Positions 4,057 to 27,118 of a stretch of 64,000 nt of DNA are shown here, piece by piece. A model generated the notes under the pieces. It searched no databases. It was given only the letters and a program-made list of their open reading frames with translations, and was not told the origin of the DNA. How positions within the stretch are numbered: position 1 is the stretch's first letter; each line of letters opens with the position of its first letter. Source of the DNA: Frankiales bacterium. GTDB lineage: Bacteria; Actinomycetota; Actinomycetes; JAFAQI01. The stretch lies in the NCBI GenBank assembly GCA_025980325.1, contig JAICXQ010000001.1, positions 12,232 through 76,231 of the forward strand, read 5' to 3'. The position numbers and the translations under genes were made by a program.

Positions 4057-4117
4057 TGCCCCCGCGGAGCTCGGCACGCGGCGTGACAATCCCCGCCGGC
4101 GCGCGAGGCAAGGAATT

Positions 4118-7100: not shown

Positions 7101-7876
7101 AGCCCATTCCCGTCGCAACACTTCGCGACGACATCGCGGGGTGGTCAAGACTGCCGCCGGAGGAAATCACGGCCGCGATTCGACTACTCACTGTCGACAG
7201 CGACCTCGCTCGTGGCGATCGCACCGGTGCGTGGGAGGTCGAACGGCGCGACGCGAGGCTCAATGCACGGCCCCTCATTGCTGTCACCGGCGGGCTGCTC
7301 GTCCTGCCGCACCTGTGCACGACCGCTCGCGACATCTTCCTCGGCCGACTTGCTGACGGCCGACTTCCCTGGCCCGTCCGTGACGAACGTCTGCGGCTCG
7401 CGGTCGACGCGTTTCGCCGCCATGTCACCGCGCAGCTCGAGCGCACGGTCGGCGAGAAACTCTCTGAGCTCGGCTTGCCGCATGTGATGAACGTCAAGGA
7501 GAACCGAGCCGCTGCTCTTGGGATCCCCAATCTGCCCGGCGAGATCGACGCACTCGCCGTCGAGGCCGCCTCGGAAACGCTTTGGGTGATCGAGGTCAAG
7601 CATGCCCGTCGTGCCGTGAGCGCGAGCGAGATCCGCGAACGGGTGAGGAAATTCATCGAGCCAAACGGTTACATAGACGTACTGCTCCGCAAGACAGCTG
7701 TCATCGCTCCGCATGCCTCAGCGGCTGCCGCACTGGCCGGCGCCATCGAAGAGCGACCTTGGCGGGTCGTTCCGCTCATGGTCACCGCAGCCGTCGAGCC
7801 CGCTGCGTTCGCGTCGTCGCGGCGCGTGCAATTCGCGACACCGAGAACATTGGCGGTCGCGCTGCAAGCGACCTGA
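4118..7876 (+). CDS. Large Ala-rich hypothetical protein (about 1250 aa) with a C-terminal PD-(D/E)xK nuclease-like motif
   Basis: The long ORF (3971-7876) overlaps the previous gene. The likely start is GTG 4118 (aagga RBS) or ATG 4157. No Walker A/P-loop was found. The C-terminus carries GEIDALAVEAASETLWVIEVKH (D..E.K, restriction-endonuclease-like core). Same strand, 62 nt after the NurA-like gene. Confidence 0.55.
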   Translation: MDRTAPSAPLPPQMGDVASKLSVVRPILACMLTGNQPRPRWTRLDAALAPFDALSVEVLARAALDSPSASHWAAATGLVWARALARSPRGIVVASAEDLPKLVGAGVAAWPEARNMSDWWPSDPRLVVSARVRNGRVRLHPGRVVEPLRLVRRLERIAFATDDAVYARHGFRTSDLVEVGLRLADLQVTGLAPAWSQTALPEPPLLRIPRASPFDVAEQVRAIPPSVTSEEITAAARLRERDLVADASALCTDPTAAGAACEWATTAVRQAHQPGCLAVTTDAGLVPVPASLVLEALGIATGRLAIEAAGEPWVRERWAYASTADLWEVLGLPFVDDETPIPVGGMLRIAERHLASIDVVAELAPASVQPAAENAVHRAASRATTEVADATGVAADMSADMLRLVLIDAAGRLERLSGGAVVAVTADEFTRVLSEAADGPNGQDEAWDFLLDLQRVPRTVELHPPDLVDAWRHWREHGWLVPPELDVDAVPDAAVMFAWLAHDPSWPAAAQWDATERILDAARLPPKVAFWARDLDDRGVVTLWAPPAMTGGRPTCYALHPDGLVIGATGDLPGAGIPDGAGALPIVVATALRDALFARPAAVAALNLDPLTPKRVLVGVDLDEGDGIAVATADGLPPLILLGPMLLAATAADPMAMHHTLGAALSTALRLGCGDVDMDAFSAAWNAGPVALVAGVRAGPVDRSPRRELPRTRAARMRAHQAHAAAVRAAGGDVPPGELTGDEAAEICQRLLIPAADRALRDAIARFDRDLLLRAAATWADEAHAHRAQLRDRLDLALAAPWRDEVLADPSDYEDDPDQTRPLHVLIETAIAANPAPESAGIAPDRIDLARLAEQARLVAWVGAASDGYRRGLNTLTVTVGPGALTGVSMPASDPSIEATVDMAAYVAASNVDALAAAADEARLQDPDEVERLLAEADGTERPFERFTDLPDLPGSLRSLDQTMRVTLGAGFGAISAVLRTCIDMAPPPIGVLSEPIPVATLRDDIAGWSRLPPEEITAAIRLLTVDSDLARGDRTGAWEVERRDARLNARPLIAVTGGLLVLPHLCTTARDIFLGRLADGRLPWPVRDERLRLAVDAFRRHVTAQLERTVGEKLSELGLPHVMNVKENRAAALGIPNLPGEIDALAVEAASETLWVIEVKHARRAVSASEIRERVRKFIEPNGYIDVLLRKTAVIAPHASAAAALAGAIEERPWRVVPLMVTAAVEPAAFASSRRVQFATPRTLAVALQAT

Positions 7877-9422: not shown

Positions 9423-10631
9423 TCAGGGAGTGCGGGCCGGGGCGAGCCCCTGCCCGCAGGACGCGCGGCCCGCGACGTGTAAGTCAATGGAAAGTGTCCC
9501 GGTCTGCCATGCGATCGCGCCGGGCGAGCCGTTTCTACTGTGCGACCGCCCCGGCATAAGGTTGTCGAGGACAGCCGCAGTTTCCTGCAGGTGCTCCGGA
9601 AACAGGTGGCCGTAGGTGTCCATCGTCTCGACGATGGACTTGTGGCCGAGCCGGGCCTGGATGACCTTTGGGTGGAGCCCGGCGGCGATTAGGGACGACG
9701 CGTAGGTGTGCCGCAGCGCGTGCATGCCGTACTCCTGCGGGAGGCCGGCGCGGCGTAGTGCGGGTTTCCAGACAGAGTCGTTGAACGACCCGCGGCGCCA
9801 GACTTCGCCGCGCGGGTTGGTGAACAGCAGGCCGTCCTCGCCAGTGCCGTACCGCTCGATGTGTGCGGCGAGGGCGTCGACGACGAACTTCGGCAACGGC
9901 AGCAATCGGCGCGACGACGGGGTCTTGAGCCGGTCGCTGATGACAGGAACCCCGCCGCCCATCGGTGTCTTGGCCTGCGCCTCGACCCACAGCTCGCGGC
10001 GCAGGAAGTTGACCGCTCGCAGCCGCACTCCGAGCAGCTCGCCCTGGCGCATGCCGGTGCCGACGCCGAGCGCAAGGATCGCGTAGTGGTCCGGCCGGGC
10101 CTCGAGCAGCAAGGACCCGACCTGCTCCGGCGTGAGGATCGACAGCTTCGACGGCGGGATTGCAGGCAGGTTGATCTTGAAGCACGGCGTCGTCGTGAGC
10201 AGCCGGTCATACACCGCCGAGCGCAGCATCATCGCGAGCAGCGCGTAGATGTGCCGGACCGTGCGCGGCGCGAGTCCCTTGCCGACGAGCGTGCCGACGA
10301 ACGCGTTGATGTCCGTGCGCCGCAGCGACGACATCGCGCGGCCGCCGAGGTGGGGGAGGACCTGGCACTTCAAGTAGGTGTTGTAGCCGGCGAGGGTGGA
10401 CGGCTCGACCCGCAGCGACGCGAGCCACGCCGGTGCGTACTCGGCGATGGTTATCCGCGCGTCGCCGCGGAACACGTACGTGCCGTCGATCGCGGCGACC
10501 TGCGCGCGGGCGAGCGCCTGCTCGGCGAGCTTCAGAGTGGAGAACCGCTTGCGGACCATCCGGCCCTCGACGCGGTAGGTGATCTCGTAGGAGAAGCCGC
10601 GCCCGTGGGTGATCTTGCGGGGTCGAGCCAT
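9423..10631 (-). CDS. int: Tyrosine recombinase/phage-type integrase (402 aa)
   Basis: N-terminal SAM-like domain with the catalytic domain carrying the R..HxxR..Y residues (HALRHTYAS, LGHKS, MDTYGHLF). Lies in the lower-GC islet. Confidence 0.9.
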   Translation of the reverse strand: MARPRKITHGRGFSYEITYRVEGRMVRKRFSTLKLAEQALARAQVAAIDGTYVFRGDARITIAEYAPAWLASLRVEPSTLAGYNTYLKCQVLPHLGGRAMSSLRRTDINAFVGTLVGKGLAPRTVRHIYALLAMMLRSAVYDRLLTTTPCFKINLPAIPPSKLSILTPEQVGSLLLEARPDHYAILALGVGTGMRQGELLGVRLRAVNFLRRELWVEAQAKTPMGGGVPVISDRLKTPSSRRLLPLPKFVVDALAAHIERYGTGEDGLLFTNPRGEVWRRGSFNDSVWKPALRRAGLPQEYGMHALRHTYASSLIAAGLHPKVIQARLGHKSIVETMDTYGHLFPEHLQETAAVLDNLMPGRSHSRNGSPGAIAWQTGTLSIDLHVAGRASCGQGLAPARTP

Positions 10632-11241: not shown

Positions 11242-14200
11242 ATGGTCTTCAGGGGGGATGTTCTCGTGATCCGGTCGAGGAAACCGCATTCACGTACAGT
11301 CGCGAATCGCGCCGTCGCACAGGCGATCGGCAAGACTCTTTTGGCCTTCACCGTCGGCGTGTCGGCGACGGTCGTGTCGGCACCGCTCGCCGCCGCGTCC
11401 ATCCCGACCACGGTCCCGCAACTGCAGCCGGTCGACGGCGAATCGCTGGCGGACACGAATAGCGGCGCGGATGCTATCGCTGCATCCGCCACGTCGTCCG
11501 GGTTGACCGAACGGCCGGACACGTGGATGCAGACGAGTCGCACCTTCACCGCCGCAAATGGAATTAACACGACGGTGATCGGTCTCACTCCGCTCAACTA
11601 CCAGGACGCGGGCGCCACGTGGCAGCCGATCGACGACGAGCTCACTGCGGACACGACGACGGGCTATGCGTGGCGTAACACCGCCGACGCCTACAGCGTC
11701 GAGTTCCCGGCGAACCTTCTGTCCGGGCCGATAAGGGTCAGCAACAACGGCGGTTGGGTCGCGTTCCAGATCGCCGGTGCGACCGGCGCAGGTGTGGTGA
11801 GCGGCAACACAATCACGTATGCGAACGCGCTGCCGGGTGTGTCACTGACTTACGCGGCGACTCCGCTCGGGTTGAAGGAGACGATGACGCTGGCGGACGC
11901 GTCGGCCTTGTCCGCGTTTACCGTCGTCGTGACCAGCAGCGACGGGCTGACGACCGCGACCCAGGTCGACGGGAGCACCGGCTTCGTCAACGCGACCGGC
12001 GATCTGATCGCGTCACTCGCGAAGCCGTGGATCACCGACGCGAACCAGGACATGAGCGGCCTCGACGACGCACTCTCGTCGTCGTTGACGCCGGACGGGA
12101 CGAACGCGTGGCTGGACGCGCTCACGGTGTCCGCGACCTGGTTGACCGCACCGAGCCGCTCGTGGCCGGTCACCATCGACCCCACGCTGAAGACCGAGCA
12201 GGACTTCTCGACCGACTGCCTGATGTTCTCCGGTCACCCGACGAGTGGTGTGTGCGCTCAGAATCCGGCCGGCGTGGGTTACCACGCCGACGATTCGCTC
12301 ATCCGCCGCGACGTCATGGAGTTCTCGGTGTCGTCGATCCCGTCCTCCGCCACGGTCACGGACTCGGAGCTCGAGCTCGACGAGGGGCTCACCGCCTATG
12401 GCCCGGTCGAGCTCCAGATCTACCGGAACGATCAGAGCTTCAGTGCGGTGAACGCCACCTGGGACGACGCCGATGCGCATACGGGAACGGCCTGGATCTC
12501 GACCGGGCGTGGCGGCGACCCGGTCGGCAGCGCTTTGATATCGACTCCGTTCGGGTGCGACCCCACCGGCCCGAGTTGCGCCGGCGTGAAGACGTTCAAC
12601 ATCGCCGGCGCGACCCAGAACTGGGTGAACGGGACGTGGGCGAATACCGGCATCCTCTTGCGCGAACAGGTCGAGACCAATGACGGCGTCGTGCAGTTCA
12701 ACGGCAGCAATTCCCCGACCGGCCCGCCGAACATCGTGGTGACGTGGGATCGCAACCCTGACCAGCCGACCCTCGTATCGCCCGCCTCGGGTGCGACCGG
12801 CCTGTCGCCGAGCCCATCGCTGCAGGCGAACGTCACCGACCCGGATGGCGGCGACCTGTACGCGAGGTTCTTCGTCCGCACGCACGGATCGAGCACCTGG
12901 GACATTGCGAACGGCGTCATCATGCCGGCACCGAACGCCGACGACTCGAACGGCGTGGCCTCCGGCGCGACCGTGACGTACTCGCCGTCCCTCTCGCCCG
13001 GCGTGACCTACGACTGGACCGCACAGACGTGGGACGGGACGCTGTTCTCGACGACACCGACGGCGCAGTCGTTCACGGTCGCGCCGCTGCCGCCGCAGCC
13101 GACCGTGTCGAGCTCGACTCATCCGAGCCCCGGCACCTGGTACACCGCTCGTAACGCGACGTTGAACTGGAGCGCGGGCAGCGGGATGACGGGATACTCC
13201 TACGTTCTCGATCAGCCCGGGTCCGGATCGACCACGTGTCCGAGCACGACACCGGATACGACATCGGAAGGCACCGCGACCACTGTTTCGTACGCGAACC
13301 TCGCCGACGGCATCTACTGCTTCCATGTGCGCGCCCAGAACATCTCCGGTTGGGGGCCGGCGTCCAACACCTTCGAGATCGACATCGACGGCACGACACC
13401 GGGCGCGCCGAGCGCAGTGACCTCGACCCCGGCACCGAACAGCAACGGATGGATCACCTCCGGCAACTTCACAATGAACTGGTCCGTGCCGACGCAGACG
13501 CAGGTCTCGGGGATCGCCGGCTACTCGTACGTCCTCGACCAGCCGGCGATCGGCAACACCTGCCCGCCGACGATTCCCGACACGACATCGGAAGGCGCCG
13601 CCGCGTCCGTGAGCTACACGGGCAAGGCAGACGGTGCGTGGTGCTTCCACGTCCGCGCCGAGAGCGGCGCCGGGCTGTGGGGCCCGGCGGCGCACTACAC
13701 GGTCAGCATCGACGCAACGCCGCTCACGGCACCGCAAAACCTCACCTCGAACCCGGCGCCGAACGCGACCGGATGGCTGACGATGAACAGCCCCACCATG
13801 ACCTGGTCGGCTCCGGCCAGCACCTCGGGGGTCACCGGTTACTCGTACGGCCCGCTCGATCATCCCGCGTCCGGTTCGACCACCTGTCCGACCACGGCTC
13901 CCGATACGACATCGGAGGGCACGGCCACCAGCGTTTCGTACAGCAATCTCGCCGACGGCATCTCGTGCTTCCACGTCCGCGCAGAGAACGCGGCAGGTGT
14001 CTGGGGTGACACCGCGCACTACACGTTGCGCATCGACAGCGTCGCCCCGACATCGCCGGCGAACCTGACGACGACTCCGTCCGCGGACGGGCTGTCCCAC
14101 GCGACCCGCACCATCGCCGCATCGTGGAGCGCGGGAACCGATGCCACGTCCGGCGTGGCCGGTTACTACTACACGTTCGACAACGTCGCGACCCGTCCCG

Positions 14201-17200
14201 CCAACACGCCGTTGTCTGCGGACACGTTCACGGCGACGACGACGGCGACGCTGTCGAACTCGACGGACGGTGTGTGGTACGTCCATGTGCGCACGATCGA
14301 CGCGGCCGGCAACCTCAGCGGTTACGCCAACTACGGCCCGGTGATTCTCAACAACGTCAGTCCGATCATCAACAAGACGCTCAACACAGCGGCGGCGAAC
14401 GGCTACTACGGGCGCGGCCAGTACCTCCAATACACGGTGACGGTGACCAACCCGTCGACCCTTGCGCCGTCGACGATCACTGGCTTCAGCGACACTCTCC
14501 AGCCGGGTCAGCTCCTGATCGGCACGGACATCCTGCTCAGCCGCTCCGACGACGGAAGTACCGCGGCGCGCCACTGCCTGCGGATCACCGGATCCGAGCA
14601 GTGCACGATCAGCACCGATGGGACGACGATCACGCTGCCGAACTTCACCCTTCCGGCCGGCGTCTCGCTGCAGCTCGTCTACACCACGCTCGCGACCGGG
14701 GTGGAGAACGGCTGCATGATCACGTCGAACACCGCGACCGCAGCCGATGCCGCGGGCAGCGCGACCACGAACCCGGTTTCCGCCACCATCTGTGACACCG
14801 GTCTCGGAATCGAGCCCTGGTGGAGCTATGTCTCGACCGCGGTCGGGCCTCAGTCGACCGCGCAGGTCAACGTCGCCAACGGCAACCTCGTCGTGCAGGC
14901 GACCGACTCCACCCCGATCAACGCGCACGGTCGCCTCGGTTACGTGATCCGCCGTACGTACAACAGCCAGGACACGACCGCGCTCACGCTGCCCGGAAGC
15001 CTCGGCGCGGGCTGGCAACTCAACGTCGGCGCGACCGACGATCTCGCCGGCGCCGGCGTGACGCCGACGAGCCTGTCGGTCCCGACCGCCAACAGCGTCG
15101 CGGCACCGCTGGGGATCACACTTATCGACCGTGACGGCACCAGGCACGTCTTCACCTACCGCAGCGCGAGCGTCGCGATCACGTCGCCGGTCGACGTGAC
15201 CTCACTCGCCGGCGGATCGCCGATCCATCAACTCGTGCCGGTGAACCCGCTGCTGCGTCCGTCGAGCCTGAGCGGGTCGGCAGCCTTCGCCCACGTGTGC
15301 GTCGACGCGACCTACCAAGCACCTGCGGGCGTACACCTCGCATTGTGGCGTTACGTCGGCACCAACGGCAGCACCTGCTCCGCTGCGCTCAATGATTCGA
15401 ACGCGCGGATCCTCGGCTTCACGACGATGCGCCCGGACCGGCTGCGCTCCGAGTTCGACGCCGCCGGTCACCTGCTCGACCTCGTCGACGGTTCCGGCGT
15501 CGACCTCCGCTACGCGTACGGCACGACCGGCGAGCTCAGGTCGATCAGCGAAGCACGTGACTGCACCGGCGCGGTCGGCACCGCGACGTGTCGTGGCGTC
15601 GTCGTCACGTACTCGAGCGACCAGACGAACGCGTGCCCCATTCCGGCCGGCGCGGCGAGCAGCGAGTGCGTCATCGATCCGGCCGGCCGTCGCACGATTT
15701 ACGCGTTCGACAACGCCGTTCCGAAGCATCTGGTCGAGGTCGACAACCCGGACGACAACCCGTCCGGCACCCGGGACCGCTTCCAGTACGCCTATCAGGG
15801 TTTCGGGGCGAGCTGTGGCGCCGCCGCGGCCGGTCAGCTGTGCACCGTCGTCGAACCGCGCTTTGACCCGAAGACCGGTGCTGTGATCAGCACGACGTTC
15901 GGATACACCGCGCAGAGCCCGCTCGGCCTGCCACGCGTCACGTCCATCACCGACCGCCGCCATGTGATGACGACGCTGGCCTACACCGGCGCGCCGTCGA
16001 CCGCTACGACCGTGGACGACAACGGTGAACGGACGAGTTACCTGTCGATCGACTCCAGCGGCCGGGTCGGCGAGGTCGACCAGGGGGCCACCACCGCGAG
16101 CCCGCTGAGCATCACCCGCTACACCTGGGACACCGCAGCCAATCCCTGCACGTACGTCTCCGGCACGGTGCAAGGCACACACACGGCGTGGGCCAGGCCG
16201 GACAACAACCTGTGCCGGGTGACGAGAGCGCACATCAGCGGGGCGTCGGACGAAACCACGTCGTTCGCCTATACCCCGGAAGGGATGCTGCTCACGTCCC
16301 GGCAGGTCATGTCGTCCGGGCCGGACCTCTACCGCACCTACGCTTACGCGACGCAGTATGTCCGCAACGGAAGCGCCACGATCACCGCGACGGACTCGGT
16401 GTCCGGCAGCGGCGACGTCGCCGTCGGCAACCGGTCGAGCGCCATCGGCGACGGTGGCTCGGTGGCCGGCGACTCCTCGGTCGTCTATGCACTGACCGAC
16501 CTCGTCGCAAGCTTGTCACCGCGCGGCAACGTTGCCGGTGCGACGGTTGCCAACTTCCGCACGGATTACACGGTCGCGGACAGCACTGCTGCCGAACCCG
16601 ACGTGAACCCCGGCGGCAACGCCTGCACGGCACGCAACAGCGGCTCGGTCTGCACCGTGTCCGCGCCGTACTCCGGATCCTCCAAGAGCATCACGCAGTA
16701 CGACTACGACAGCTTCGGGCAGAAGGTCAGCGCGACAGTTCCCAAGCTCTCCTACGAAACCCCGCCGAGCGGGCAGACCTACCAGTACACCTACACCTAC
16801 TACGCCGACAGCTCGACCGACCACGAGACGCACAAGACCAGCATGGGCGGATGGCTGGAAGCCGTCACCGACCCGGCCGGCCACTACGTGTTCTTCACCT
16901 ATGACGCGGCCGGCGATCGCACCCGCACGTGGGACCGCAACGCAACCACGGCGAGCGGCGATTCGCTTTCGGCGATGGAGGCGGCGGTCGCGACCGGTTC
17001 CGGGCCGGTCGGCGCTTCGGTGACCTTGTACGCAAACCCGTTCAACTCGATGCCGTGGCGCTACCTGCTCCTCACCGAGGAACCCGTCGGCCCGCTCACG
17101 ACCTATGCGGTCGATGTCGACGGCAACGTGACGGCAATTACGACGAACGCGGGCCACACGACGACACAGACGTTCGACGAAGCGGGCAACCTGCTCACTC

Positions 17201-20200
17201 GTACGACGCCGGCGGAGCCGGGACACCCGACGACGAACACCTACGATGCGTTCGGGAACCTCGCCACGACCACGAGCCCGAACAACGTCGTCACTGCGTA
17301 CCGCTACGACGCACTCAACCGTCGGGTGACGACGTACACCGACCGGGGTAGCGCAAGCAGCGGCACGTCCAACCCGGGCGGCGGCTGCTTCGTGACCGAC
17401 ACCGGTGCGAACGCGGTCCCCGAGTACGCGGTGAACGAGGTCGTCTGCGCCGCTCGTGCGAGCTACGACGAGTTCGGCAACATGGTCTCGAGCACCGACG
17501 GCGCGAACCACACCACGACGTACACGTACGACACCGCGAACCGTCGGGTCGACACGTTGACGCCGCGGACCGACACAGTCAGCTACACCACGCGCACGCT
17601 CTACGACGCCGACGGCGACGCGATCGACACGTGCCCGCCACGCCAGTTCACCGACGGCGGGGCGTCGACGTGCTCCGACACCAGCCCCGGCGTCTACAGC
17701 ACCCATCGAAGCTTCAGTGAAGCGGACCGGTTGCTGACGACGACGACATATCGCGCGCGGCCGACCTCCGTGCACGGCGACCCGGCGAACACGCCGGCAA
17801 CGAGCACCGACACCACGACGTACACGTACGACGCCGACGGCAACCGGACCAGCGTCGCCGACCCCAACAATCATGTGACGACGGACGTGTACGACTTCCT
17901 CGACCGCAAGACCAGCGAGCTGACGCCGCGGACGAGTGGAGTCAACAAGCGCACGGTGTACACGTACGACGCGAACGGCAACGTGCTCAGCACGACCGCG
18001 TCGGGCCTCGCGCCGGTGAACGTCGGGGGCACCCCGCTCAATGTCGGCAGCCCGTACTCCGCGTCGAACCCCTATCCGCTGCCGGCCGACGTGACGACCT
18101 ACAGCTCGATCACACTGACCGGCGGCGCCTGGATCACCGTGCCGGCGAACAGCGCGCCGGCCGCGATCAGCATCACCGTCTCGTCGACCCTGTCGATCTG
18201 CAGCACCTGCGGCATCACTCTCGACGGTGACGGCTGGGCCGGCGGCACCCCGGCGGCAAGCGCCCTGACAACGGACGGATTCACGGTGAGCGGGAGTGGC
18301 AGCGGGCCCGGCGCCGGCGCGGGCGGTACCAGCGCGGCGACGGCCGGCGGTGGCGGCGGAGGCGCCGGCTACTCGGCGGCGGGGACCGACGGCTTCGGTG
18401 GCGGCAGCCCCCTCGGCGGCGCGGGTGGCAACGCCGGCTCGCCGTACGGCGACGCGACCATCGGCGGTGAGACGTCCACTCAAGCCGGCTCGGGCGGCGG
18501 CGCGGGCGGCACGATCGAGCCGTCGACGCTCGGAGGCGTGGGTGGTGCCGGCGGCGGCATCCTGCACGTGACGGCGAACCAGATCATCCTCGACGGTTCG
18601 ATAACGGCACGCGGCGCGAACGGTGCGGACGGCCAGGTCGTCCAAGGCGCGCTCGGTGCGGGTGGCGGCGGTGGCGGCTCGGGTGGCGCGATCTGGCTGA
18701 GCGCCCCGCAGATCATCACCGACTCCGGCTCGATCGGTCACGTCGACGTCAGCGGCGGTGCCGGTGGCAGCGGCACTCCGGGTGGCACTGACGGCTCGGG
18801 CGGCGCGGGTGCGCCGGGTCGGGTCCGGTTCGACACCGACGAGCTCAGCAGCAGCATCGTGACGACCGCCGGGTCGACGCAACGGACGACGTTCGGGCGG
18901 ACCACCGCGTACAGCTACGACTTCGACAACCGGCTCGTCGACACTGTGATCGGCGCGTCGTCGCCGAACGCGGCGGCCGACGGTCCGACCGGCAGCGACG
19001 GCGGGTCCAACGTGCGCACCCGACTCGTCTACGACGACGAGGGGAACGTCGTGGGCCGCTTCGACCCGCGTGCCTTTGCGGCGTCGGTGACGAGCCCGGA
19101 CGTGCGGTACGAGTCGGTTGCGGTCTACGACGCCGACCATCGGCTGACCGACGTCTACCAGCCGTACAGCGACTCGAGTGGCGCGTCCGATCCGAACGGT
19201 GCCCCGTCGCAGTGTCCGGACGCGGCCAGTCTCGGGATCAGCGCCTATCAAGGCCTGACCGGTGTGCACGTCTGTCGTCTGCACTACGGGTACGACCACG
19301 ACGGCAACCGCACACTGACGCAGCTGCCGACGTACGACAGCAGCGACACGACCCGGGTGTACACGGCTGCTTACACTCCGGACGACCTGCTCGCGTCGAC
19401 GAGTGTGCCGGACCCGTCGGTGACGAGTCATGCGGCTGCACTCCGTGCGGAGGCATACACCTATGACGGTGCCGGCCGCCGCCTGACCGACCAGGAGTTG
19501 CCGGACACCGGTGGCCCGACGACCACGACGACGTACACCGCTGACGGCTTGGTCGCCACGGTGACGCCGCCGACGGGCGGCGCGAGCCATCTGACGACGT
19601 ACGGGTACGACCCGAACGGCGCGCAGGTGAGTGTGACGATGCAACAGGACGCGTCGACCACCCGGACGAGCTTCACCGACTACAACAGCGACGGCAGCGT
19701 CTATGCGAACGTCGACCCGGCCGGAAATACGACGAGCTACACCTATGACGCGGCGGGCAACCAGATCGCGGTCTATGGCCCGTCGGCGAATGCCGGCGAT
19801 GCGACCAACCCGAACCACCTGCCGACGGTGTATTCGTACTTCGACGACAACTTGCTCGCGACGACCTCGACGCCGACGGTGTCCAGTGGTGCGACTCGCC
19901 GCCTGACGACGTACGGCTACAACCTGGGCGGCGACAAGACCAGCGTCGACGTCGACTACACCAACGCGAGCGGGACAGTGACGACCGACGGTGCTCCGCA
20001 GCGTTTCGGGTACTACCCGGACGGGCGGATTGAGTCGTCAACCGGCCGCAGCGGCGGGTCGCAGGCGTTCAGCTACGACGCGGCCGGGCACCCGTTGTCG
20101 AGCAGCGACACGGCGAACGGCGACACGGTCACGACCGCCGCGACGTATTACCTGGACAACGCCATCCGCACGGTGAGCGAGTCGGGGACTGTGGTTCCGA

Positions 20201-22401
20201 CGTCGTCGACGACGTACAGCTACGACGCGGCCGGCTCGGTCGATCTGCGGCAAAGCCAGGTGGGGACATCGACGACCTCGACGTCGTTTGCGTACACGGA
20301 CAACGAGCAATTGGCGAATGTGGCCGGCGGTGTGACCGGCACGACGATCACGCTTGTGTATGACTCGCAGGGTCGGCCAACGACGACGAACTACGCGTCG
20401 GGTGTGGCGTTGACGCGGACATGGAACGCCGACGACACACTCGCGAGCCAATCGTTGGCGACCAACGGCAATTCGAGCAACTGGGCGTACGCGTATGACG
20501 GGATGTCCCGCGTGACGGCGGCGGACAACACCTCCGGCGCGACGAGCACGGATTGCACCGCTGCGACTCTGCCGAACGGTTTGCAGTGCTTCACCTACGA
20601 CGCGGCCGGCCGGTTGCATTCGTTTGCCGACAGCCAGGCGAGCCGGACGGCGACTTACGACGCGGACGGAAACCGGTTGAGCTATGGCGACGCGGCGCAC
20701 CCGTCGGTCGCGCCGGTGGTGACGGCGAACTACAACCCGGACGACTCGATTCACGACCAGAAGGTCGGGTCGGGGACGGACAACGTGTATGTGTACGCGC
20801 TGCCGTTCGGTGGGGTGACATCGGACGGGTGCAGCACGTATGCGTACGACGGGTTCGGCCGGCTCTCGTCGGTGACCGGTTCCGGCGGGAGCGGCTGTAC
20901 GTCGAACGTGTCGTACACCTATGACGCCCTGGATCGGCAGGTGCAACGCAACGAGACCGGCTCGAACGCGGTCCGTGGTGGCGTGACGAACCTGGCGTAT
21001 GACGGATTGGCCATGACGTTGACGAGCGAGTCGCTGCCGTCGAGTGGCGGGCTGACGCGTTACACGTTGGACGGCGCGGGTGCGGCGTGGGCGGTGACGA
21101 ACAGCTCGACGAACGGGCAGACGCAGTACCTCGCCGACGACGGGCAGGGCAACGTGACTAACCCAGTCACGGCCAGCAGCGGCAACCTCGCGTGCGGGTT
21201 CCGCTACGACCCGTGGGGCAGCGCGCTGACGACGAGCCTCAGCGTCACACCCACGTGCACGTCGGGCAACACGCCGACCGACCTGCAGTACCGCGGCGAG
21301 GCAAAGGATCCGACGACCGGCACTTACCAGCTTGGGTCCCGCACCTACGACCCGGCGAAGACCGGCTTCCTCAATCCAGACAGTTACCGCAATGCGCCGT
21401 CGTCGGGCGACCTCAGCATCGGCACCGATCCGCTCACCCGCGACAGCTACAACTACGTCAACGGCGACCCGATCAACCTGATCGATCCGAGCGGCCACAT
21501 GAACGAAGCGGAGGGTGGCGGCGGCTGCGGGAATCTGCGGATGCGGACGTGTCGCTTGGTGGAGCAGTACAACTACTACCTGGTTGAGAAGGAGCTGATC
21601 CGCCAGCACGATGCGTACTACGCGGCGGTCGGGGAGCGTAAGCAGTGCGTTGAGCATCGCTGCGGCGGGGTCAACGACCCGAGTGCCGCGGCTGCGTACT
21701 CGAAGTCGATGCTGGAGATCCTCAACGGTGCTGCTTATCAGGGCGATATCAACAGTCCGTGGGTCAAGACCCTCGATCCGCTAGTCCAGTCGTTCTGGCA
21801 GCAAGCCAAACCCAGCTTCGAAGGCGTCGTTACCGAGGACGACACGGTTCAAGGGATCATCGACACCATCGCCACGCTCGGCATCGCCGCACCCGAAGAA
21901 GCCGCCGTCAGCGCCGGCGAGACCGCAGCTAAAGAGGTCACTGAGCAAGCGGTGAAGGCCGCCGCGCGAGTAACCGTCGATGACGCCGCCCCACAAGCAG
22001 CGCGAGACGCCGTAAGCATGGAAGAGGACCTGGTTGCCTCCGGTCGTAGCTTCGGGCCCGGCGCTGCCCACGTTGATGACCCGGCGTTCTCCCCGGCCTT
22101 CTACCGAGGAGCGCCGCCCGGCGAGAATCCAAGCTTCACTCTGAAGCCGGGCGAGTATCGAGTCACTGGGGCCAGCCAAGTTCGAGGGTTGTCTGTCTTC
22201 AACAACCCCGAAGCCGTCGCGTCAAGGGGTATGGTCCCGTTTGAGGTCGACCAGTCGACCGTCTCTGATGCTCTGAGCATCGAGCAGCGCGGCGGCAACC
22301 TGGAGCACTTCGAGATCGTGCCGGCCGGGGGCGCATTTCCGCCGCAGAACGAGTTCCAATCACTACTCGATGAGATCGAAGTGTTCGGTGGAGGTGAATG
22401 A
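11242..22401 (+). CDS. rhs: Giant Rhs/YD-repeat polymorphic toxin (3719 aa) with signal peptide, four Ig/Fn3-like repeats, YD repeats, a Gly-rich insert and a C-terminal toxin domain
   Basis: N-terminal signal peptide (alternative GTG start at 11266 with a GGGGGG RBS). Many YxYDxxGN(R/L) repeats (YTYDANGNV, YTYDADGNR, YSYDFDNRL and others). Core end motif DPLTRDSYNYVNGDPINLIDPSGH at about aa 3395, followed by about 310 aa of C-terminal domain. Confidence 0.9.
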   Translation: MVFRGDVLVIRSRKPHSRTVANRAVAQAIGKTLLAFTVGVSATVVSAPLAAASIPTTVPQLQPVDGESLADTNSGADAIAASATSSGLTERPDTWMQTSRTFTAANGINTTVIGLTPLNYQDAGATWQPIDDELTADTTTGYAWRNTADAYSVEFPANLLSGPIRVSNNGGWVAFQIAGATGAGVVSGNTITYANALPGVSLTYAATPLGLKETMTLADASALSAFTVVVTSSDGLTTATQVDGSTGFVNATGDLIASLAKPWITDANQDMSGLDDALSSSLTPDGTNAWLDALTVSATWLTAPSRSWPVTIDPTLKTEQDFSTDCLMFSGHPTSGVCAQNPAGVGYHADDSLIRRDVMEFSVSSIPSSATVTDSELELDEGLTAYGPVELQIYRNDQSFSAVNATWDDADAHTGTAWISTGRGGDPVGSALISTPFGCDPTGPSCAGVKTFNIAGATQNWVNGTWANTGILLREQVETNDGVVQFNGSNSPTGPPNIVVTWDRNPDQPTLVSPASGATGLSPSPSLQANVTDPDGGDLYARFFVRTHGSSTWDIANGVIMPAPNADDSNGVASGATVTYSPSLSPGVTYDWTAQTWDGTLFSTTPTAQSFTVAPLPPQPTVSSSTHPSPGTWYTARNATLNWSAGSGMTGYSYVLDQPGSGSTTCPSTTPDTTSEGTATTVSYANLADGIYCFHVRAQNISGWGPASNTFEIDIDGTTPGAPSAVTSTPAPNSNGWITSGNFTMNWSVPTQTQVSGIAGYSYVLDQPAIGNTCPPTIPDTTSEGAAASVSYTGKADGAWCFHVRAESGAGLWGPAAHYTVSIDATPLTAPQNLTSNPAPNATGWLTMNSPTMTWSAPASTSGVTGYSYGPLDHPASGSTTCPTTAPDTTSEGTATSVSYSNLADGISCFHVRAENAAGVWGDTAHYTLRIDSVAPTSPANLTTTPSADGLSHATRTIAASWSAGTDATSGVAGYYYTFDNVATRPANTPLSADTFTATTTATLSNSTDGVWYVHVRTIDAAGNLSGYANYGPVILNNVSPIINKTLNTAAANGYYGRGQYLQYTVTVTNPSTLAPSTITGFSDTLQPGQLLIGTDILLSRSDDGSTAARHCLRITGSEQCTISTDGTTITLPNFTLPAGVSLQLVYTTLATGVENGCMITSNTATAADAAGSATTNPVSATICDTGLGIEPWWSYVSTAVGPQSTAQVNVANGNLVVQATDSTPINAHGRLGYVIRRTYNSQDTTALTLPGSLGAGWQLNVGATDDLAGAGVTPTSLSVPTANSVAAPLGITLIDRDGTRHVFTYRSASVAITSPVDVTSLAGGSPIHQLVPVNPLLRPSSLSGSAAFAHVCVDATYQAPAGVHLALWRYVGTNGSTCSAALNDSNARILGFTTMRPDRLRSEFDAAGHLLDLVDGSGVDLRYAYGTTGELRSISEARDCTGAVGTATCRGVVVTYSSDQTNACPIPAGAASSECVIDPAGRRTIYAFDNAVPKHLVEVDNPDDNPSGTRDRFQYAYQGFGASCGAAAAGQLCTVVEPRFDPKTGAVISTTFGYTAQSPLGLPRVTSITDRRHVMTTLAYTGAPSTATTVDDNGERTSYLSIDSSGRVGEVDQGATTASPLSITRYTWDTAANPCTYVSGTVQGTHTAWARPDNNLCRVTRAHISGASDETTSFAYTPEGMLLTSRQVMSSGPDLYRTYAYATQYVRNGSATITATDSVSGSGDVAVGNRSSAIGDGGSVAGDSSVVYALTDLVASLSPRGNVAGATVANFRTDYTVADSTAAEPDVNPGGNACTARNSGSVCTVSAPYSGSSKSITQYDYDSFGQKVSATVPKLSYETPPSGQTYQYTYTYYADSSTDHETHKTSMGGWLEAVTDPAGHYVFFTYDAAGDRTRTWDRNATTASGDSLSAMEAAVATGSGPVGASVTLYANPFNSMPWRYLLLTEEPVGPLTTYAVDVDGNVTAITTNAGHTTTQTFDEAGNLLTRTTPAEPGHPTTNTYDAFGNLATTTSPNNVVTAYRYDALNRRVTTYTDRGSASSGTSNPGGGCFVTDTGANAVPEYAVNEVVCAARASYDEFGNMVSSTDGANHTTTYTYDTANRRVDTLTPRTDTVSYTTRTLYDADGDAIDTCPPRQFTDGGASTCSDTSPGVYSTHRSFSEADRLLTTTTYRARPTSVHGDPANTPATSTDTTTYTYDADGNRTSVADPNNHVTTDVYDFLDRKTSELTPRTSGVNKRTVYTYDANGNVLSTTASGLAPVNVGGTPLNVGSPYSASNPYPLPADVTTYSSITLTGGAWITVPANSAPAAISITVSSTLSICSTCGITLDGDGWAGGTPAASALTTDGFTVSGSGSGPGAGAGGTSAATAGGGGGGAGYSAAGTDGFGGGSPLGGAGGNAGSPYGDATIGGETSTQAGSGGGAGGTIEPSTLGGVGGAGGGILHVTANQIILDGSITARGANGADGQVVQGALGAGGGGGGSGGAIWLSAPQIITDSGSIGHVDVSGGAGGSGTPGGTDGSGGAGAPGRVRFDTDELSSSIVTTAGSTQRTTFGRTTAYSYDFDNRLVDTVIGASSPNAAADGPTGSDGGSNVRTRLVYDDEGNVVGRFDPRAFAASVTSPDVRYESVAVYDADHRLTDVYQPYSDSSGASDPNGAPSQCPDAASLGISAYQGLTGVHVCRLHYGYDHDGNRTLTQLPTYDSSDTTRVYTAAYTPDDLLASTSVPDPSVTSHAAALRAEAYTYDGAGRRLTDQELPDTGGPTTTTTYTADGLVATVTPPTGGASHLTTYGYDPNGAQVSVTMQQDASTTRTSFTDYNSDGSVYANVDPAGNTTSYTYDAAGNQIAVYGPSANAGDATNPNHLPTVYSYFDDNLLATTSTPTVSSGATRRLTTYGYNLGGDKTSVDVDYTNASGTVTTDGAPQRFGYYPDGRIESSTGRSGGSQAFSYDAAGHPLSSSDTANGDTVTTAATYYLDNAIRTVSESGTVVPTSSTTYSYDAAGSVDLRQSQVGTSTTSTSFAYTDNEQLANVAGGVTGTTITLVYDSQGRPTTTNYASGVALTRTWNADDTLASQSLATNGNSSNWAYAYDGMSRVTAADNTSGATSTDCTAATLPNGLQCFTYDAAGRLHSFADSQASRTATYDADGNRLSYGDAAHPSVAPVVTANYNPDDSIHDQKVGSGTDNVYVYALPFGGVTSDGCSTYAYDGFGRLSSVTGSGGSGCTSNVSYTYDALDRQVQRNETGSNAVRGGVTNLAYDGLAMTLTSESLPSSGGLTRYTLDGAGAAWAVTNSSTNGQTQYLADDGQGNVTNPVTASSGNLACGFRYDPWGSALTTSLSVTPTCTSGNTPTDLQYRGEAKDPTTGTYQLGSRTYDPAKTGFLNPDSYRNAPSSGDLSIGTDPLTRDSYNYVNGDPINLIDPSGHMNEAEGGGGCGNLRMRTCRLVEQYNYYLVEKELIRQHDAYYAAVGERKQCVEHRCGGVNDPSAAAAYSKSMLEILNGAAYQGDINSPWVKTLDPLVQSFWQQAKPSFEGVVTEDDTVQGIIDTIATLGIAAPEEAAVSAGETAAKEVTEQAVKAAARVTVDDAAPQAARDAVSMEEDLVASGRSFGPGAAHVDDPAFSPAFYRGAPPGENPSFTLKPGEYRVTGASQVRGLSVFNNPEAVASRGMVPFEVDQSTVSDALSIEQRGGNLEHFEIVPAGGAFPPQNEFQSLLDEIEVFGGGE
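13090..14360 (+). repeat. Four in-frame tandem repeats of about 285 nt (95 aa) encoding Ig/Fn3-like modules within the Rhs N-terminal region
   Basis: Repeating consensus G(Y)SYVLDQPxSGSTTCPxTxPDTTSEGTAxSVSYxNLADGxxCFHVRAxNxAGxWGxxAHYTxxID, seen four times. Confidence 0.6.
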
Positions 22402-22727
22402 TGGTCGGCGAGACGGTCTATGTGACTGCTAAAGCTGTCCGATGGGTCAGCGATGACCCCGTCCCGGGCATCGTTGAGGTCCAGGTCGTAGATGGGCACG
22501 GCAAGGCTTGGTCCTTTATAGACAAGGCACCGATGTTCGAGGAGGGCAACAAACTCACTCGTACGACCGCGTATCCCACGGAGATCGAGTTGGCGTGCAC
22601 CGTCGTCGGATCCAACAGCGACGGGATCGTTGTCTCGACCGCAAGGCCCTGGGGGATCGAAACAATCGATGGGGTGTCTCAGTTTACGTTGGCCCCCGCG
22701 CAAGTTCATGGTCGAGCCGCTATGTGA
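22398..22727 (+). CDS. Putative cognate immunity protein for the Rhs C-terminal toxin (109 aa)
   Basis: Its start overlaps the rhs stop (ATGATGG at 22398-22403). It is small and has no detectable motifs. The position is typical for Rhs immunity genes. Confidence 0.5.
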   Translation: MMVGETVYVTAKAVRWVSDDPVPGIVEVQVVDGHGKAWSFIDKAPMFEEGNKLTRTTAYPTEIELACTVVGSNSDGIVVSTARPWGIETIDGVSQFTLAPAQVHGRAAM

Positions 22728-23619
22728 ATCCCTGACGCGGTGATCGATCGCCAGGCGTCTTGCCGCGTACTCACGGCGTCCCGCCTCGGGTTCCGCGGAC
22801 GGCCGGTGACGACGAACTACCGGACCGGCGTCACACTGGACCCTGATGTGGAAACAGGGAGGTCCATTTCATCGAAGGCTTGAAGGGAACACTTGCACTT
22901 CGAAATGACTGAGCCGAATTCTTAGCAGCGCGGGACCAAGTTCTGCGCGGTGCGCCGATCTTCAAGGGCGGCAACGTTAACAGCCTGCCGCCCGAGCAGT
23001 CGCAATTCGTTACATTCGAGAGTCCGGACGGACGCGGAAGCGCCAATTGAGGCGATAATGCGGGGGCCTGGTTCAGTTGCACGGCTGGTGCGCACCCGAG
23101 GCCCGGCTACGACGGGAGTGACGTTCGCTTCCGTGTAGCCATGGCACGAGGTCGCGACATGACACTGCGTACACGCTTGCGGTATTCCGGGTGCCTACGC
23201 GAGCGGGATGGCGTCCTACGATCGGACCGGAACCGGTCGCGCCAGCTCGCTCTTGTGATCGACGCTCACCGGTTCGAGCAATTTTGGCGTACGCCTACGA
23301 CGGCGTGTTCAGCGCAACGGTGGCGGAGAACACCTCGGGTCGCGACGAGTGCGGATTACCCGTCCGGCGGGCCCGCCGGACGGGTTGGAATGCTTCAGCT
23401 AGGACGCGGTGGGACGAGTGCACACGTTTACCAGCGGTGGGCGCCCTGGACGGTGTCGTATGACGCGGAGCGGAACTGGTTGCTCTCGACCAAGTGAGCT
23501 AACTTACGCACCAACCGGCAACGAGCACGGCGCCCATCCGCCTCAACTCGGGCGAGTCTTAGGCCCACTCGGGTGCAGAGGAAGCGGCGTTGCAGTCAGG
23601 AGTCGTACGTCCAATACCT

Positions 23620-24107
23620 TGATGCCTTCGACCAACTGCGAGCGGTGGGAAGAATTAGTGCCTCCTAACCATGAAGCCCCCCGCATCGAAATGATCGATG
23701 GTCTTGACGCGACCCGACGTCTCGAAGAGTGGTATTTCGGTATAGGCGGGTTCTCGCCCGAACGCGCTGTGGAGTTCATCCGTGAGGAGGCGGCGCTGTG
23801 CGGTGTAGGTGAGATTCGCGTCACACGTCGAGGAGCATGGTGGGTGATCGATTCGGAGGAAGATTGGCTTCCACGAGCCAATGACGGACTAGATGCGTTC
23901 CACGCTCTACTCCGTTACCCGGAAGGCGGCGTCAACGGTGCGCGAACCGAAGCGCTGCTAACCGCGTTTGCGACGGTACTTATCACCGCCAAGCGTGACA
24001 GGTCATGGGTCATCGTCGAATCTCGGGATCGTGCATGCCGCTGGATTCGTCGTCACGGTGACGAAATGTCGATGCATGCGCGAACCATCGCATTCGCCAC
24101 GATCTAG
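23620..24107 (+). CDS. Hypothetical small protein in a low-GC spacer; possible orphan immunity protein
   Basis: Protein-like segment MIDGLDATRRLEEWYFGIGGFSPERAVEFIREEAALCG... within ORF 23409-24107. The start is uncertain (ATG about 23620, GTG about 23659 with a ggaag RBS, or ATG about 23691). Confidence 0.3.
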
Positions 24108-24450
24108 CGCTAGCTGTCCTGACCAAGGACGTTGCTGGCCGTGGTCATGCGGCGGGCCGGGTGATCTCGAGGCGGGCCGAGCACCTCGAAGGACGGTCCG
24201 CATTGACCTTGTGGACGCTCTCGAATCCAACCCCAACACTAACGGCCCGAAATGAATGAGCGTAGTTAGCAGAGGCCCCGGCGATGACGGTTCTAGGACT
24301 GGCTCAACGACCTCACGATACGCGACCTGATTGTTGCGCGCGAACCGCGATTTGGCCCCTTAGGAGCGTTCTGATCTTCGTCGTTCGGATGCCGAGTTTA
24401 TGTACTCTGATCCAAGGAGCCACCGACCAGGCTTGCCCTGAACGTGATGA

Positions 24451-24549
24451 GTGAGTCGCTGCAACATCGGTACCGACCCACTGACCCGCGACACCTATAA
24501 CTACGTCAACGGCGACTCGATTAACCTCACCGATCGCAGCGGGCACGCG
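24451..24549 (+). pseudogene. Orphan Rhs core-end fragment (displaced C-terminal tip)
   Basis: Encodes IGTDPLTRDTYNYVNGDSINLTDRSGH, about 81% nt identity to 21418-21500 of the main rhs. The frame degenerates immediately after SGH, and the downstream protein-like frame is shifted by +1. Confidence 0.6.
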
Positions 24550-24550
24550 G

Positions 24551-25321
24551 GTCGACGTGCATCTCAGACGGATGTTGACAGCATGTGCGCCGGCTACTCG
24601 GGCGCTGGCCCAAAGGCACACCTTGAAGCGCGTCGCGGCCATCGTCGACGAAATCACAGACGTTCTCGTATACGGGCCACAAGTCGAGCGGCTCCTGAAA
24701 GGAAAGTCACGTCGTCCTGCTGATAAGGCGAAACTAAGTGCCATCGGTTACTGCATGTGTCTTCCCGCAGATTTTTGGACCCCTAATTGGTCGTGGCAGA
24801 TGCGGCTGGCGTACCTCGACGACCCGAACCAACTCACCGACGAGAACATCCTCTTCGCGGCCGGCGAGCGAGACGCGGTGGACCCGCATGCCGTCGCGCA
24901 CGTGCTCGAAACCGGGTTCTTGGCTCTTGCGGCCGTCGCGGCGGACGATCCAGAAGAAGGCGCGACGACGGTCGACCCATTCACTGACGACGCCAAGCTA
25001 GTCGACGCCGATCTTGCTGCCGCCGAACGCCACCTGGCGATGATTCCTGACGCGCTCCAGTACGGTCCGAACAAGGCGATGCTTGTCAGCATCCGGTCTA
25101 CAAATGCGGCCGACGATGCCTTGTCGGCTGCGCAGCGCACCTTCCTCGATCACGAGTTGCTTGAGGCCGCATTGGTGCGTGGCGGACTATCACAAGAGGA
25201 GGCGCACCAAGCTGTCGTAACCGTCTTTCCGCACGGCTCGAACTATTCTCCCGATGTGATCCGTCAGTTCTCTACGTACTTCAGCGATACGTACTTCAAG
25301 TACTGGGGGATGACTAGATGA
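24551..25321 (+). CDS. Candidate orphan toxin domain (about 255 aa) downstream of the orphan Rhs tip
   Basis: Protein-like ORF (MHLRRMLTACAP...VAAIVDEITDVLVYGPQVERLL...). The frame is open back to 24485 without an ATG, consistent with a former fusion to the Rhs tip. Confidence 0.4.
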   Translation, partial: VDVHLRRMLTACAPATRALAQRHTLKRVAAIVDEITDVLVYGPQVERLLKGKSRRPADKAKLSAIGYCMCLPADFWTPNWSWQMRLAYLDDPNQLTDENILFAAGERDAVDPHAVAHVLETGFLALAAVAADDPEEGATTVDPFTDDAKLVDADLAAAERHLAMIPDALQYGPNKAMLVSIRSTNAADDALSAAQRTFLDHELLEAALVRGGLSQEEAHQAVVTVFPHGSNYSPDVIRQFSTYFSDTYFKYWGMTR

Positions 25322-25857
25322 CAGGCAAGCTGTCCATCGGAGCCTGGGCGGTCGGATGGTCTAACGAGATCGGGCCCTTTCGGGTCGAATCGAGCGCCGA
25401 GCCTCTAGAGTACGTCTGCGCGGCAAGCACTCATGTTGAGGCGGATTCTGCGTCTGTCGCGATCGAGCTTGTACATCGAATCTCGGGCATGCGGCCGCAC
25501 GCATTGCTTGCCGCAACGTACCAGCCGAGCCAAGACGGCCGCCTGGTCGTTCGGGTCGTTCGGGGAGTCGAATTCGATCCTGCAAAAGCGATAGTCACGA
25601 GCCCTCTCGGGCTGAAACTCGCAACCGCCTTGCCGCCGAATCTGGGCGAGGCAGCGGCTGCGGCGTTTCGGTCGGATGAATCCACCGACCTCAACGTGGG
25701 TGGCGTGGTGAATATCGTTGGCGGAGGCATCGATCACGACTCATCGCCGATGGTATTCATGCGATGTGGCGAGATTCTATGCCGTTTTCTCATGGCGGTC
25801 GCCGTGCGACAGAACCCGCGTGTCGCGATTCAATCCCTTGTAAAGTCTTGGGCGTAA
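25318..25857 (+). CDS. Putative immunity protein for the orphan toxin (179 aa)
   Basis: ATGA start/stop overlap with the preceding ORF at 25318-25321. Confidence 0.4.
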   Translation: MTGKLSIGAWAVGWSNEIGPFRVESSAEPLEYVCAASTHVEADSASVAIELVHRISGMRPHALLAATYQPSQDGRLVVRVVRGVEFDPAKAIVTSPLGLKLATALPPNLGEAAAAAFRSDESTDLNVGGVVNIVGGGIDHDSSPMVFMRCGEILCRFLMAVAVRQNPRVAIQSLVKSWA

Positions 25858-26400
25858 CGCAGGTTGATCGGGTCCCCTTGACGTGTCCACCAGGTGCGCG
25901 CTGGTCAACGGCTATTCCCGATCAGTGAGAAGGCGCGGCATGACCAAGCACGATTCATTGTCCGGCTCACACGGCGACGAGATCTTGAGTGCGTGGCGAT
26001 CGGCCGTTGAGAGATTAGCTAGCGATGGCATGGATGACGGGTTCTGCGACTGGCTCAACGACCTGACGTACGGGACCAGATTGCCAGACAGGAAATGTAG
26101 TTCACCGCCAAGGTGCGTTTGCAACTCCGGCGGCTGGACGTCCTGTTCGGCGAATTGACGAACGAGGTTTCCACATCTGTTGATCCTCTTAATGAGAGTC
26201 CGCGTTGGTGGTGGTTCCGTGTCCCGAGAGGGATGACAGCTGACTTCCGCGAAGAGATCAGAACCAGAGGTATATCTGAGATACCAAAAAAGCCCGGATG
26301 ATCGGTAGAGGCCTCTACAACCATGCTGCGATGGCCCGCAGTGGTTGTCGAGATCGGGGACGAGCTAATTCGACCGATAGCGTCGACGTAAAGTTTAGTC

Positions 26401-26751
26401 GTGGCTCACATCGCGTGTCTCTGTGGCCATCAGATCGACATCGGCCACCTTCCGTCGCCGAATGTTTACCACGGGGTGAGCGACTCGTGGTTTAACTTGG
26501 TCACGAATCGACTCGACAGAGCAGACAACTTGTCAAAGGACGATTTCCTCGATGCGCTTGCCTTCGACCTGTTTGGTTCCCGAGGCAAGAGGGCCTTCAG
26601 GCTGTATCCGTGCCGTCAGTGTGGTCGCGTAACAGTCGAAGCGCATGGATTTCGAATCTCTCTCCGAGCGGAGAAGGGCGACGTGCTCGGGTGGATACAC
26701 GACATGGACCTGGACGTGGCGGAGTTTCGCGAGGCCGAGGAAGGCGGCTGA
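26401..26751 (+). CDS. Small Cys-containing hypothetical protein (116 aa; CLCGH ... CRQCG, zinc-ribbon-like)
   Basis: The ORF has lower GC than the flanks. Two CxxC-like pairs are present. Confidence 0.3.
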   Translation: MAHIACLCGHQIDIGHLPSPNVYHGVSDSWFNLVTNRLDRADNLSKDDFLDALAFDLFGSRGKRAFRLYPCRQCGRVTVEAHGFRISLRAEKGDVLGWIHDMDLDVAEFREAEEGG

Positions 26752-27118
26752 GATCAAAGTGGATGCCTGGGATTGGCGCCTGCAGGTCCAAACGACTACG
26801 GAGACAAGCCGCGTGACCAGGCCGACATCCCCCAGCTGTCATTTGGGGCCGGCATGACGGCGAGTGACATGAGTCTCTTTGGAGAACATTCGGCTTACCG
26901 GCGGACTCCGTCCGCGGCCTTGCTCGGATCCGCGCTCACGGAGCGTTTCCGGCGCGGCTGACCGGCCACTTTCGGGTCCCCTTCCCGATCGAACCCGGCC
27001 AGCGCTGGTCGTCGGGCGCCACGGAATCGGGCGGGAAACTTCGGTCCGGACGCTGAAGGCGCCGTCACGCAAACCCGCGAGGCTCGCCGCTGACGCCCTC
27101 AGCACGACAGGAGCAGGG

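Follow-up and report, generated by a model that had tools for sequence, protein, structure and literature searches.

The window, a 64,000-nucleotide (nt) stretch of DNA from a Frankiales bacterium (GenBank assembly GCA_025980325.1, contig JAICXQ010000001.1, positions 12,232 to 76,231), carries a very large Rhs/YD-repeat polymorphic toxin gene, and we analyzed the C-terminal tip of its product together with the small open reading frame (ORF) that overlaps its stop codon. In the ORF list, the rhs gene spans 11242..22401 and encodes 3,719 amino acids (aa); here and below, coordinates are those of the window and features lie on the forward strand unless stated otherwise. Pfam recognized RHS repeats in five stretches of the ORF (PF05593, 5.8e-37), as well as DUF6531 (PF20148, 4.9e-07). 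By sequence, the protein appears to begin with a Sec-type signal peptide, which has a basic n-region and a hydrophobic ...LLAFTVGVSATVVSAPLAAAS, and no secretion-system genes were seen among the window ORFs scanned. On both counts, we infer a WapA-like, Sec-exported surface toxin.

Two segments of the Rhs chain stand apart from the repeats. At residues ~620-1000 (window ~13100-14250) lie four tandem ~100-aa modules with the motif GYSYVLDQP...CFHVRA.N..G.WGP, which gave a weak Pfam Y_Y_Y match and are presumably surface or adhesion repeats. Farther along (window ~18000-18700, local G+C content 0.74), a Gly-rich insert of ~210 aa (GGGGGGAGYSAAGTDGFGGG...GGAGGSGTPGGTDGSGGAGAPG) breaks the YD-repeat region, which is unusual for an Rhs shell.

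The Rhs-associated core has a sharply defined end. TIGR03696 matched residues 236-333 of the translated window 20500-22398 at 53.3 bits (cut-off 32.5), placing the core at 21205..21498 with the terminal sequence PINLIDPSGH, an instance of PxxxxDPxG[L/H]. The model stops exactly at the H of DPSGH (...GDPINLIDPSGH; H codon at nt 21496-21498), where His takes the place of the Leu of the PxxxxDPxGL consensus, and the variable tip follows directly, so that the C-terminal end of the ORF reads ...NYVNGDPINLIDPSGH/MNEAEGGGGCGNLRMRTCRLVEQYNYYLVEKEL...FEIVPAGGAFPPQNEFQSLLDEIEVFGGGE-stop. Because the core model ends at this His, the tail runs from 21499 to 22398 and is 300 aa long. An earlier note on this DNA had given it ~310 aa from 21490; the tail exists and reads as quoted there, but it is shorter, and that start falls inside the DPSGH motif. 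From the conserved motif, one expects the Rhs repeats to build a shell that encapsulates the tip and has its end at the DPSGH junction. As in other Rhs and TcC proteins, the core would cleave itself at DPSGH and retain the 300-aa cargo.

Homology searches showed that only the last ~100 aa of the tail are conserved. A word-indexed search with the 304-aa stretch beginning at the P of DPSGH, in which 8,000 candidates were scored, returned two metagenomic proteins (P0001 and P0002), both aligning solely to residues 202-304 of the query at 69-72% identity. Their upstream parts are unrelated to that of the window protein, and P0002 begins with its own Rhs-type end (...LIDPDGH). The ~310-aa tail is thus not the single toxin domain that the earlier note had taken it to be: none of the searches recovered a relative of its first ~200 aa. 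Since relatives share only the C-terminal third, we divide the tail into a lineage-specific linker or pre-toxin region of ~197 aa (21499..22089) and a toxin domain proper of ~103 aa (22090..22398), which homology, profiles and an AlphaFold2 (AF2) model suggest to be a compact, Tse2-like domain of the ADP-ribosyltransferase (ART) fold.

The linker is acidic (pI 4.7) and 16% Ala, its four Cys are arranged as two pairs (CGNLRMRTC, CVEHRC), and nothing in it resembles a transmembrane segment (maximum KD19 = 1.09). No relative of it was found among the 8,000 candidates scored in the word-indexed tail search, which may miss some, or in a metagenome scan with its first 114 aa, and one can only guess at a part in delivery or entry. 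Herpes_UL56 (17.3 bits, cut-off 25) and ILVD_EDD_N (12.7 bits, cut-off 27) scored far below threshold in its Ala-rich sequence and were treated as low-complexity noise. The tail as a whole had no credible match in Pfam, NCBIfam, PADLOC or PDB sequences.

The C-terminal domain belongs to a wide family of tips. A hidden Markov model search of the whole library (1.84 billion representative proteins) with a profile built from three close sequences (A2) retrieved 189 cluster representatives at E ≤ 1e-3, 99 of them at E ≤ 1e-10, and the window domain is a clear member, with E down to 1e-21 for members outside its own subclade. Given 189 such relatives, the tail domain is genuine coding sequence and not a chance ORF. 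The domain ends within five residues of the protein C-terminus in 88 of the 96 near-full-length members, bearing out the proposal of a toxin-type C-terminal domain in the tail. Host proteins are ~100 to 2,565 aa long and include Rhs (RHS_repeat, DUF6531), PT-HINT and DUF4157-like scaffolds. In several of them, the domain starts a few residues past an Rhs ...DPxGL or Hint ...VHN end; the ~100 aa are therefore self-contained. A hydrophobic helper segment ahead of the domain was considered as a family feature and dropped because it occurs in just 15 of 92 members (KD19 ≥ 1.6) and is absent from the window.

Directly downstream of the toxin domain lies its probable cognate immunity gene (22398..22727), assigned from homologue linkage and the junction itself. 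As the earlier note had described, a 109-aa ORF opens at ATGATGG, a sequence that begins at 22398 and spans the toxin's TGA stop (22399-22401). A Shine-Dalgarno sequence, GGAGG (22390..22394), sits within the final toxin codons, the last Gly codons providing it; the first candidate ATG (22398) follows after 3 nt and the second (22401) after 6 nt. This Shine-Dalgarno sequence, a 108-aa database entry for the protein itself (P0003) and the T(G/A)ATG junction of its relatives favor the start at 22401, making a product of 108 aa likelier. The small ORF is genuine coding sequence, as 23 cluster-level matches (its own entry included) reach down to E = 2e-51. No credible match was found in Pfam, NCBIfam, PADLOC or PDB sequences; the family appears to be unnamed so far, which on the immunity side agrees with the potential novelty raised earlier. 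The protein has no signal peptide, and its model is all-beta (pLDDT 88.2), with weak OB-fold-like Foldseek matches (E > 0.1).

The toxin domain and the small gene travel together. A ~107-aa homologue lies directly 3' of a homologous toxin domain in six other loci (L001, L002, L006/L007, L009, L013 and the degenerate L019), and the 1-nt T(G/A)ATG stop/start overlap seen in the window recurs in five of these (L001, L002, L006/7, L009 and L013), in agreement with the immunity position first assigned to the ORF. Sequence identity across the linked loci is 65-68% for the toxin domain and 42-45% for the immunity protein; faster divergence of the immunity protein is usual for toxin/immunity pairs. 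In about eight further contexts (L003/L004, L005, L010, L011, L012, L016/L017, L018 and L020), the immunity gene has no upstream toxin domain, and its neighbors include transposases (L003), an integrase (L005) and a PhdYeFM-type antitoxin gene (L010). Orphan copies of this kind are typical of polymorphic-toxin immunity genes. Separately, the toxin domain of L006 (2606-2909) is split by a frameshift and that of L007, a contig from another sample, is intact; the two loci carry an identical immunity protein (P0012), and the frameshift points either to a misassembly or to a gene that became a pseudogene recently.

The subclade that contains the window domain is a handful of sequences with the signatures VRGLSVFNN, SIEQRG and EHFEIVPAGG, and it pairs with an immunity family of its own. 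A genome scan with A2 reached one distant locus (L008), on contig JAFDZV010000009.1 of a Bacteroidetes metagenome-assembled genome. There, downstream of an AAA ATPase fragment, a 1,169-aa protein (764-4557) carries an HExxH (DUF4157-like) module at its N-terminus, continues through a long stretch that is helical and hydrophobic, and ends in a distant copy of the toxin domain. It is followed by a 95-aa gene with an ATGA overlap that is unrelated to the window's immunity family. Immunity families therefore vary between toxin clades.

The small gene is thus adjacent, downstream, co-oriented and coupled by overlap, co-occurs with the toxin domain, and has orphan copies, as expected of a polymorphic-toxin immunity gene. 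We consider it very likely that the tail domain and the small ORF form a toxin/immunity pair. If the tail were instead cargo with a structural or adhesive purpose and no toxicity, and the small ORF were unrelated to it or had an accessory role (a chaperone, for example), a ~200-aa linker without recognizable function would be readily accommodated. Yet the terminal position of the domain on Rhs, PT-HINT and DUF4157-like scaffolds (88/96), a tightly coupled and faster-evolving partner that also occurs as orphans, and an orphan rhs cassette farther downstream (see below) are together hallmarks of polymorphic toxin/immunity modules, and we give the structural alternative a very remote chance.

The wider family leads to Tse2. 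Among 41 diverse family members (A3), the sole recurrent Pfam match was PF18648 (ADPRTs_Tse2, in the ADP-ribosyltransferase clan; gathering cut-off 26.6 bits), a weak one found in 18 of the 41 with a best E of 1e-4. Family members generally score 17-22 bits against it, P0078 and P0088 reaching ~22, and one member, the fragment P0147, passes the cut-off at 30.4 bits. Searched against PDB sequences, the A3 profile weakly matched Tse2 in 5AKO (E = 0.45), and the register of this match is convincing (DTGGTSVFD..., IPPDLKVKQ, THYTIMPAK). The hhalign probability for A3 was 92% against Tse2 and 95.0% against a 35-sequence Tse2-family alignment, A4 (E = 4e-8, 78 columns), and the controls (reversed A4, 20 column-shuffled versions of A4 and the immunity alignment) gave at most 2.2%. 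The alignment pairs S45 of the family with Tse2 S80, H83 with H122, E85 with T124, and P88 with P127, and each paired residue is invariant or nearly so within its own family. The original statement that the tail fits no recognizable toxin family therefore holds for the window sequence alone, which matches no curated model, but not for the family profile. Judged by these sequence comparisons, homology of the C-terminal domain to Tse2 is likely.

The conserved residues of the domain resemble an ART active site. In the R-S-E clade of ARTs, Arg lies on beta1 (R-G-x), Ser on beta2 (S-x-x), and Glu at the front edge of beta5 (x-x-E) (PMC7955679). The window domain has R3622 in an FYRG motif (nt 22105-22107), S3651 in GLSVF (nt 22192-22194), Q3682 in QRG (within 22090..22398), and H3689 (nt 22306-22308) and E3691 (nt 22312-22314) in HFEIVP. 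Across 96 sequences, the Arg of FYRG, the Ser of GLSVF, a Gly and the His of HFE are invariant (96/96), the Gln of QRG is kept in 94, and the Glu of HFE in 93. In the AF2 model (pLDDT 83.5), YRGA, LSVF and HFEIVP fall on strands, and the order is beta-alpha-beta-beta-beta-alpha, strand first. By strand order in the model, the HFEIVP strand would be beta5, and the toxin would keep Arg on strand 1, Ser on strand 2, and His-x-Glu at the front of the fifth main strand, positions equivalent to those of the R-S-E triad. With this set in place, ART-type motifs appear to be present, contrary to the earlier impression that none were evident.

On balance, we read the locus as the C-terminal toxin/immunity cassette of a secreted, WapA-like Rhs toxin whose tip is probably a divergent Tse2-like ART-fold domain, likely dependent on nicotinamide adenine dinucleotide (NAD+). 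Several results weigh against this reading. Neither the window tail nor its domain matches PF18648 at E ≤ 1, so both stay below its cut-off, and hhalign against Tse2 gives a non-significant 1.5% for the window sequence alone and 10.4% for its subclade; the link is therefore transitive, through the wider family. The A3/Tse2 alignment does not include the Arg strand, as ~50 additional residues separate LYRA from TSVFD in Tse2, although family R16 would plausibly be the equivalent of Tse2 R14. Finally, Foldseek with the toxin-domain model returned no significant match and no ART fold, and the domain is unusually small for an ART.

Small size is shared with many ~100-aa polymorphic-toxin tips, and one could suppose that the likeness to Tse2 is convergent or spurious and that the domain is a small nuclease or RNase that works through its conserved Arg, His and Glu. 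The invariant R/H/E/Q do resemble acid-base RNase sites, and no structural match backs any fold. This supposition has to contend with the 95% hhalign probability and its clean reversed and shuffled controls, with PF18648 as the only recurrent Pfam match (one member over the cut-off), and with a strand-first beta-alpha-beta-beta-beta-alpha model unlike barnase and BECR RNases, which begin with helices. We hold a nuclease to be improbable, and continue with a Tse2-like toxin.

Tse2 itself is a cytoplasm-acting effector of the H1 type VI secretion system (H1-T6SS) that causes stasis and is neutralized by Tsi2 (PMC3325213). Reviews take its structure to indicate toxicity of an ART-like, NAD-dependent kind and describe Tsi2 as covering the active site; a 2025 review still terms its mechanism unknown, and any mechanism carried over from Tse2 is therefore itself unproven. 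The domain could thus be a true Tse2-like toxin while neither it nor Tse2 is an ADP-ribosyltransferase, arrest arising at the same cleft through NAD+-independent chemistry, another nucleotide substrate, or tight binding of an essential factor. That Tse2 does not deplete cellular NAD+ and has Thr where the family has its triad Glu would fit this account, as would the lack of an ART fold match and the small domain. Set against it are the Glu kept in 93 of 96 family members, unlike in Tse2, alongside invariant Arg and Ser in ART-like positions, and the reviews' own reading of the Tse2 structure. We regard such a non-ART mechanism as unlikely, though deserving of weight. Judged from sequence, that the domain is a catalytically active ART comes close to an even call, falling slightly short of one. 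The fuller proposal, that these ~100 aa are an active minimal ART about half the size of classical ARTs and represent the Tse2 lineage in its catalytically canonical (R-S-E) form, we put forward only tentatively and think somewhat doubtful.

Under the Tse2-like ART reading, the cargo would consist of the ~200-aa linker followed by the ~100-aa toxin domain, which is self-contained and would be a divergent, miniature homologue of Tse2. In a neighboring cell, this domain would most likely arrest growth by ADP-ribosylating a conserved cytoplasmic target in an NAD+-dependent reaction. The immunity gene would be translationally coupled to the toxin through the overlapping stop and start codons, and the cytoplasmic, predicted all-beta immunity protein would most likely bind the toxin domain and, in producer cells and their kin, obstruct the cleft of the active site. 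A Tsi2-like immunity protein was considered and rejected: Tsi2 is helical, the window protein is predicted to be all-beta, and hhalign of A5 against A4 gave 0.3%.

The surroundings of the cassette bear marks of exchange. G+C content is 0.585-0.62 over 22-27 kb, a region covering the toxin tip, the immunity gene and the orphan region, versus 0.65-0.74 elsewhere in the window, and low G+C at 22000-27000 fits horizontally exchanged cassettes. DNA alignment revealed an orphan Rhs core-end fragment (IGTDPLTRDTYNYVNGDSINLTDRSGH) at 24466..24546, within which the conserved block corresponds to main-gene nt ~21415-21498; C-terminal cassettes have therefore been replaced at this locus. Frame 1 past the fragment continues as an Arg-rich, non-protein-like tail that ends at 24723. 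In another frame, a protein-like 254-aa ORF (24557-25321) is followed by a 179-aa ORF (25318-25857) with an ATGA overlap, neither with a Pfam match, and 24466-25857 is probably a displaced, frameshifted toxin/immunity cassette. Between the immunity gene and the orphan fragment lies a 232-aa ORF with a GTG start (23409-24107), also without a Pfam match, that could be a further immunity-type gene. The repeats, terminal core, scaffold-sharing tip, immunity gene and orphan cassettes together place the gene among the Rhs/YD-repeat polymorphic toxins.

Upstream of the rhs gene, a tyrosine integrase is encoded on the reverse strand (9423-10631). The region before it (653-7876) includes an 812-aa SbcC/SMC-like ATPase (PADLOC mad3, 1.3e-27; LmuB, 2.2e-18), followed by ORFs of 322 aa and 1,301 aa that had no Pfam or PADLOC match. 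With the integrase, 653-7876 may represent a defense island adjoining the rhs locus. The window contains no tRNA gene.

The closest known system is Tse2/Tsi2 of Pseudomonas aeruginosa (PA2702/PA2703; PF18648; PDB 5AKO). The two toxin families share the motifs TG-x-V-x-(D)T-x-G-x-SVFD, [IV]P..L.[IV].Q and H-[FY]-x-I-x-P over ~78 columns, with Ser and His invariant in both, and in both systems an adjacent gene encodes a small cytoplasmic immunity protein. Tse2, however, is a separate protein of 158 aa that relies on Hcp1 and the H1-T6SS for delivery, whereas the window domain is ~100 aa long, is fused to a Sec-type Rhs protein, and lacks the ~50-aa insert that Tse2 has between its Arg and Ser strands. 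Where Tse2 has Thr124, the ~100-aa family has Glu. The partners differ as well: Tsi2 is a helical dimer of two-helix coiled coils and the window immunity protein, predicted to be all-beta, has no profile similarity to the Tse2-side alignments, so the two belong to different immunity families.

This comparison ties at least 189 clusters of ~100-aa tips, mostly unrecognized by Pfam, NCBIfam and PADLOC, to the Tse2 ART-like family, and adds, as partner of the window's subclade, an unnamed family of predicted all-beta immunity proteins that also circulates as orphans. The Glu at the triad position, unlike in Tse2, provides a testable hypothesis on Tse2-type toxicity. If the domain is indeed an active minimal ART, its small, self-contained form and separate immunity protein could make it a tractable route to the conserved cytoplasmic target of Tse2, unknown since 2010.

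In architecture, the locus resembles WapA/WapI of Gram-positive bacteria, with a large YD/Rhs protein bearing a signal-like N-terminus, a core and a variable toxin, an immunity gene, and displaced cassettes downstream. Characterized WapA tips are tRNases; the tip here is instead Tse2-like, and its delivery would be contact-dependent. Among Rhs/TcC proteins, Photorhabdus TccC3 and TccC5 have ART-fold tips. P. aeruginosa RhsP2 is described, in a passage of PMC10281587 that cites the work, as an ART that modifies structured RNAs. Like these three proteins, the window protein would combine an Rhs shell with an ART-type C-terminal cargo released at the core junction. Unlike theirs, its delivery would not be by T6SS or Tc injection, its domain is much smaller, and it has no sequence match to RhsP2- or TccC-type ART families, PF18648 alone having recurred in the Pfam scans. 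Rhs toxins with unassigned tips are common, and the toxin/immunity pair described here is therefore ordinary in kind: the cassette is a variant of a familiar Rhs weapon and not a new kind of system.

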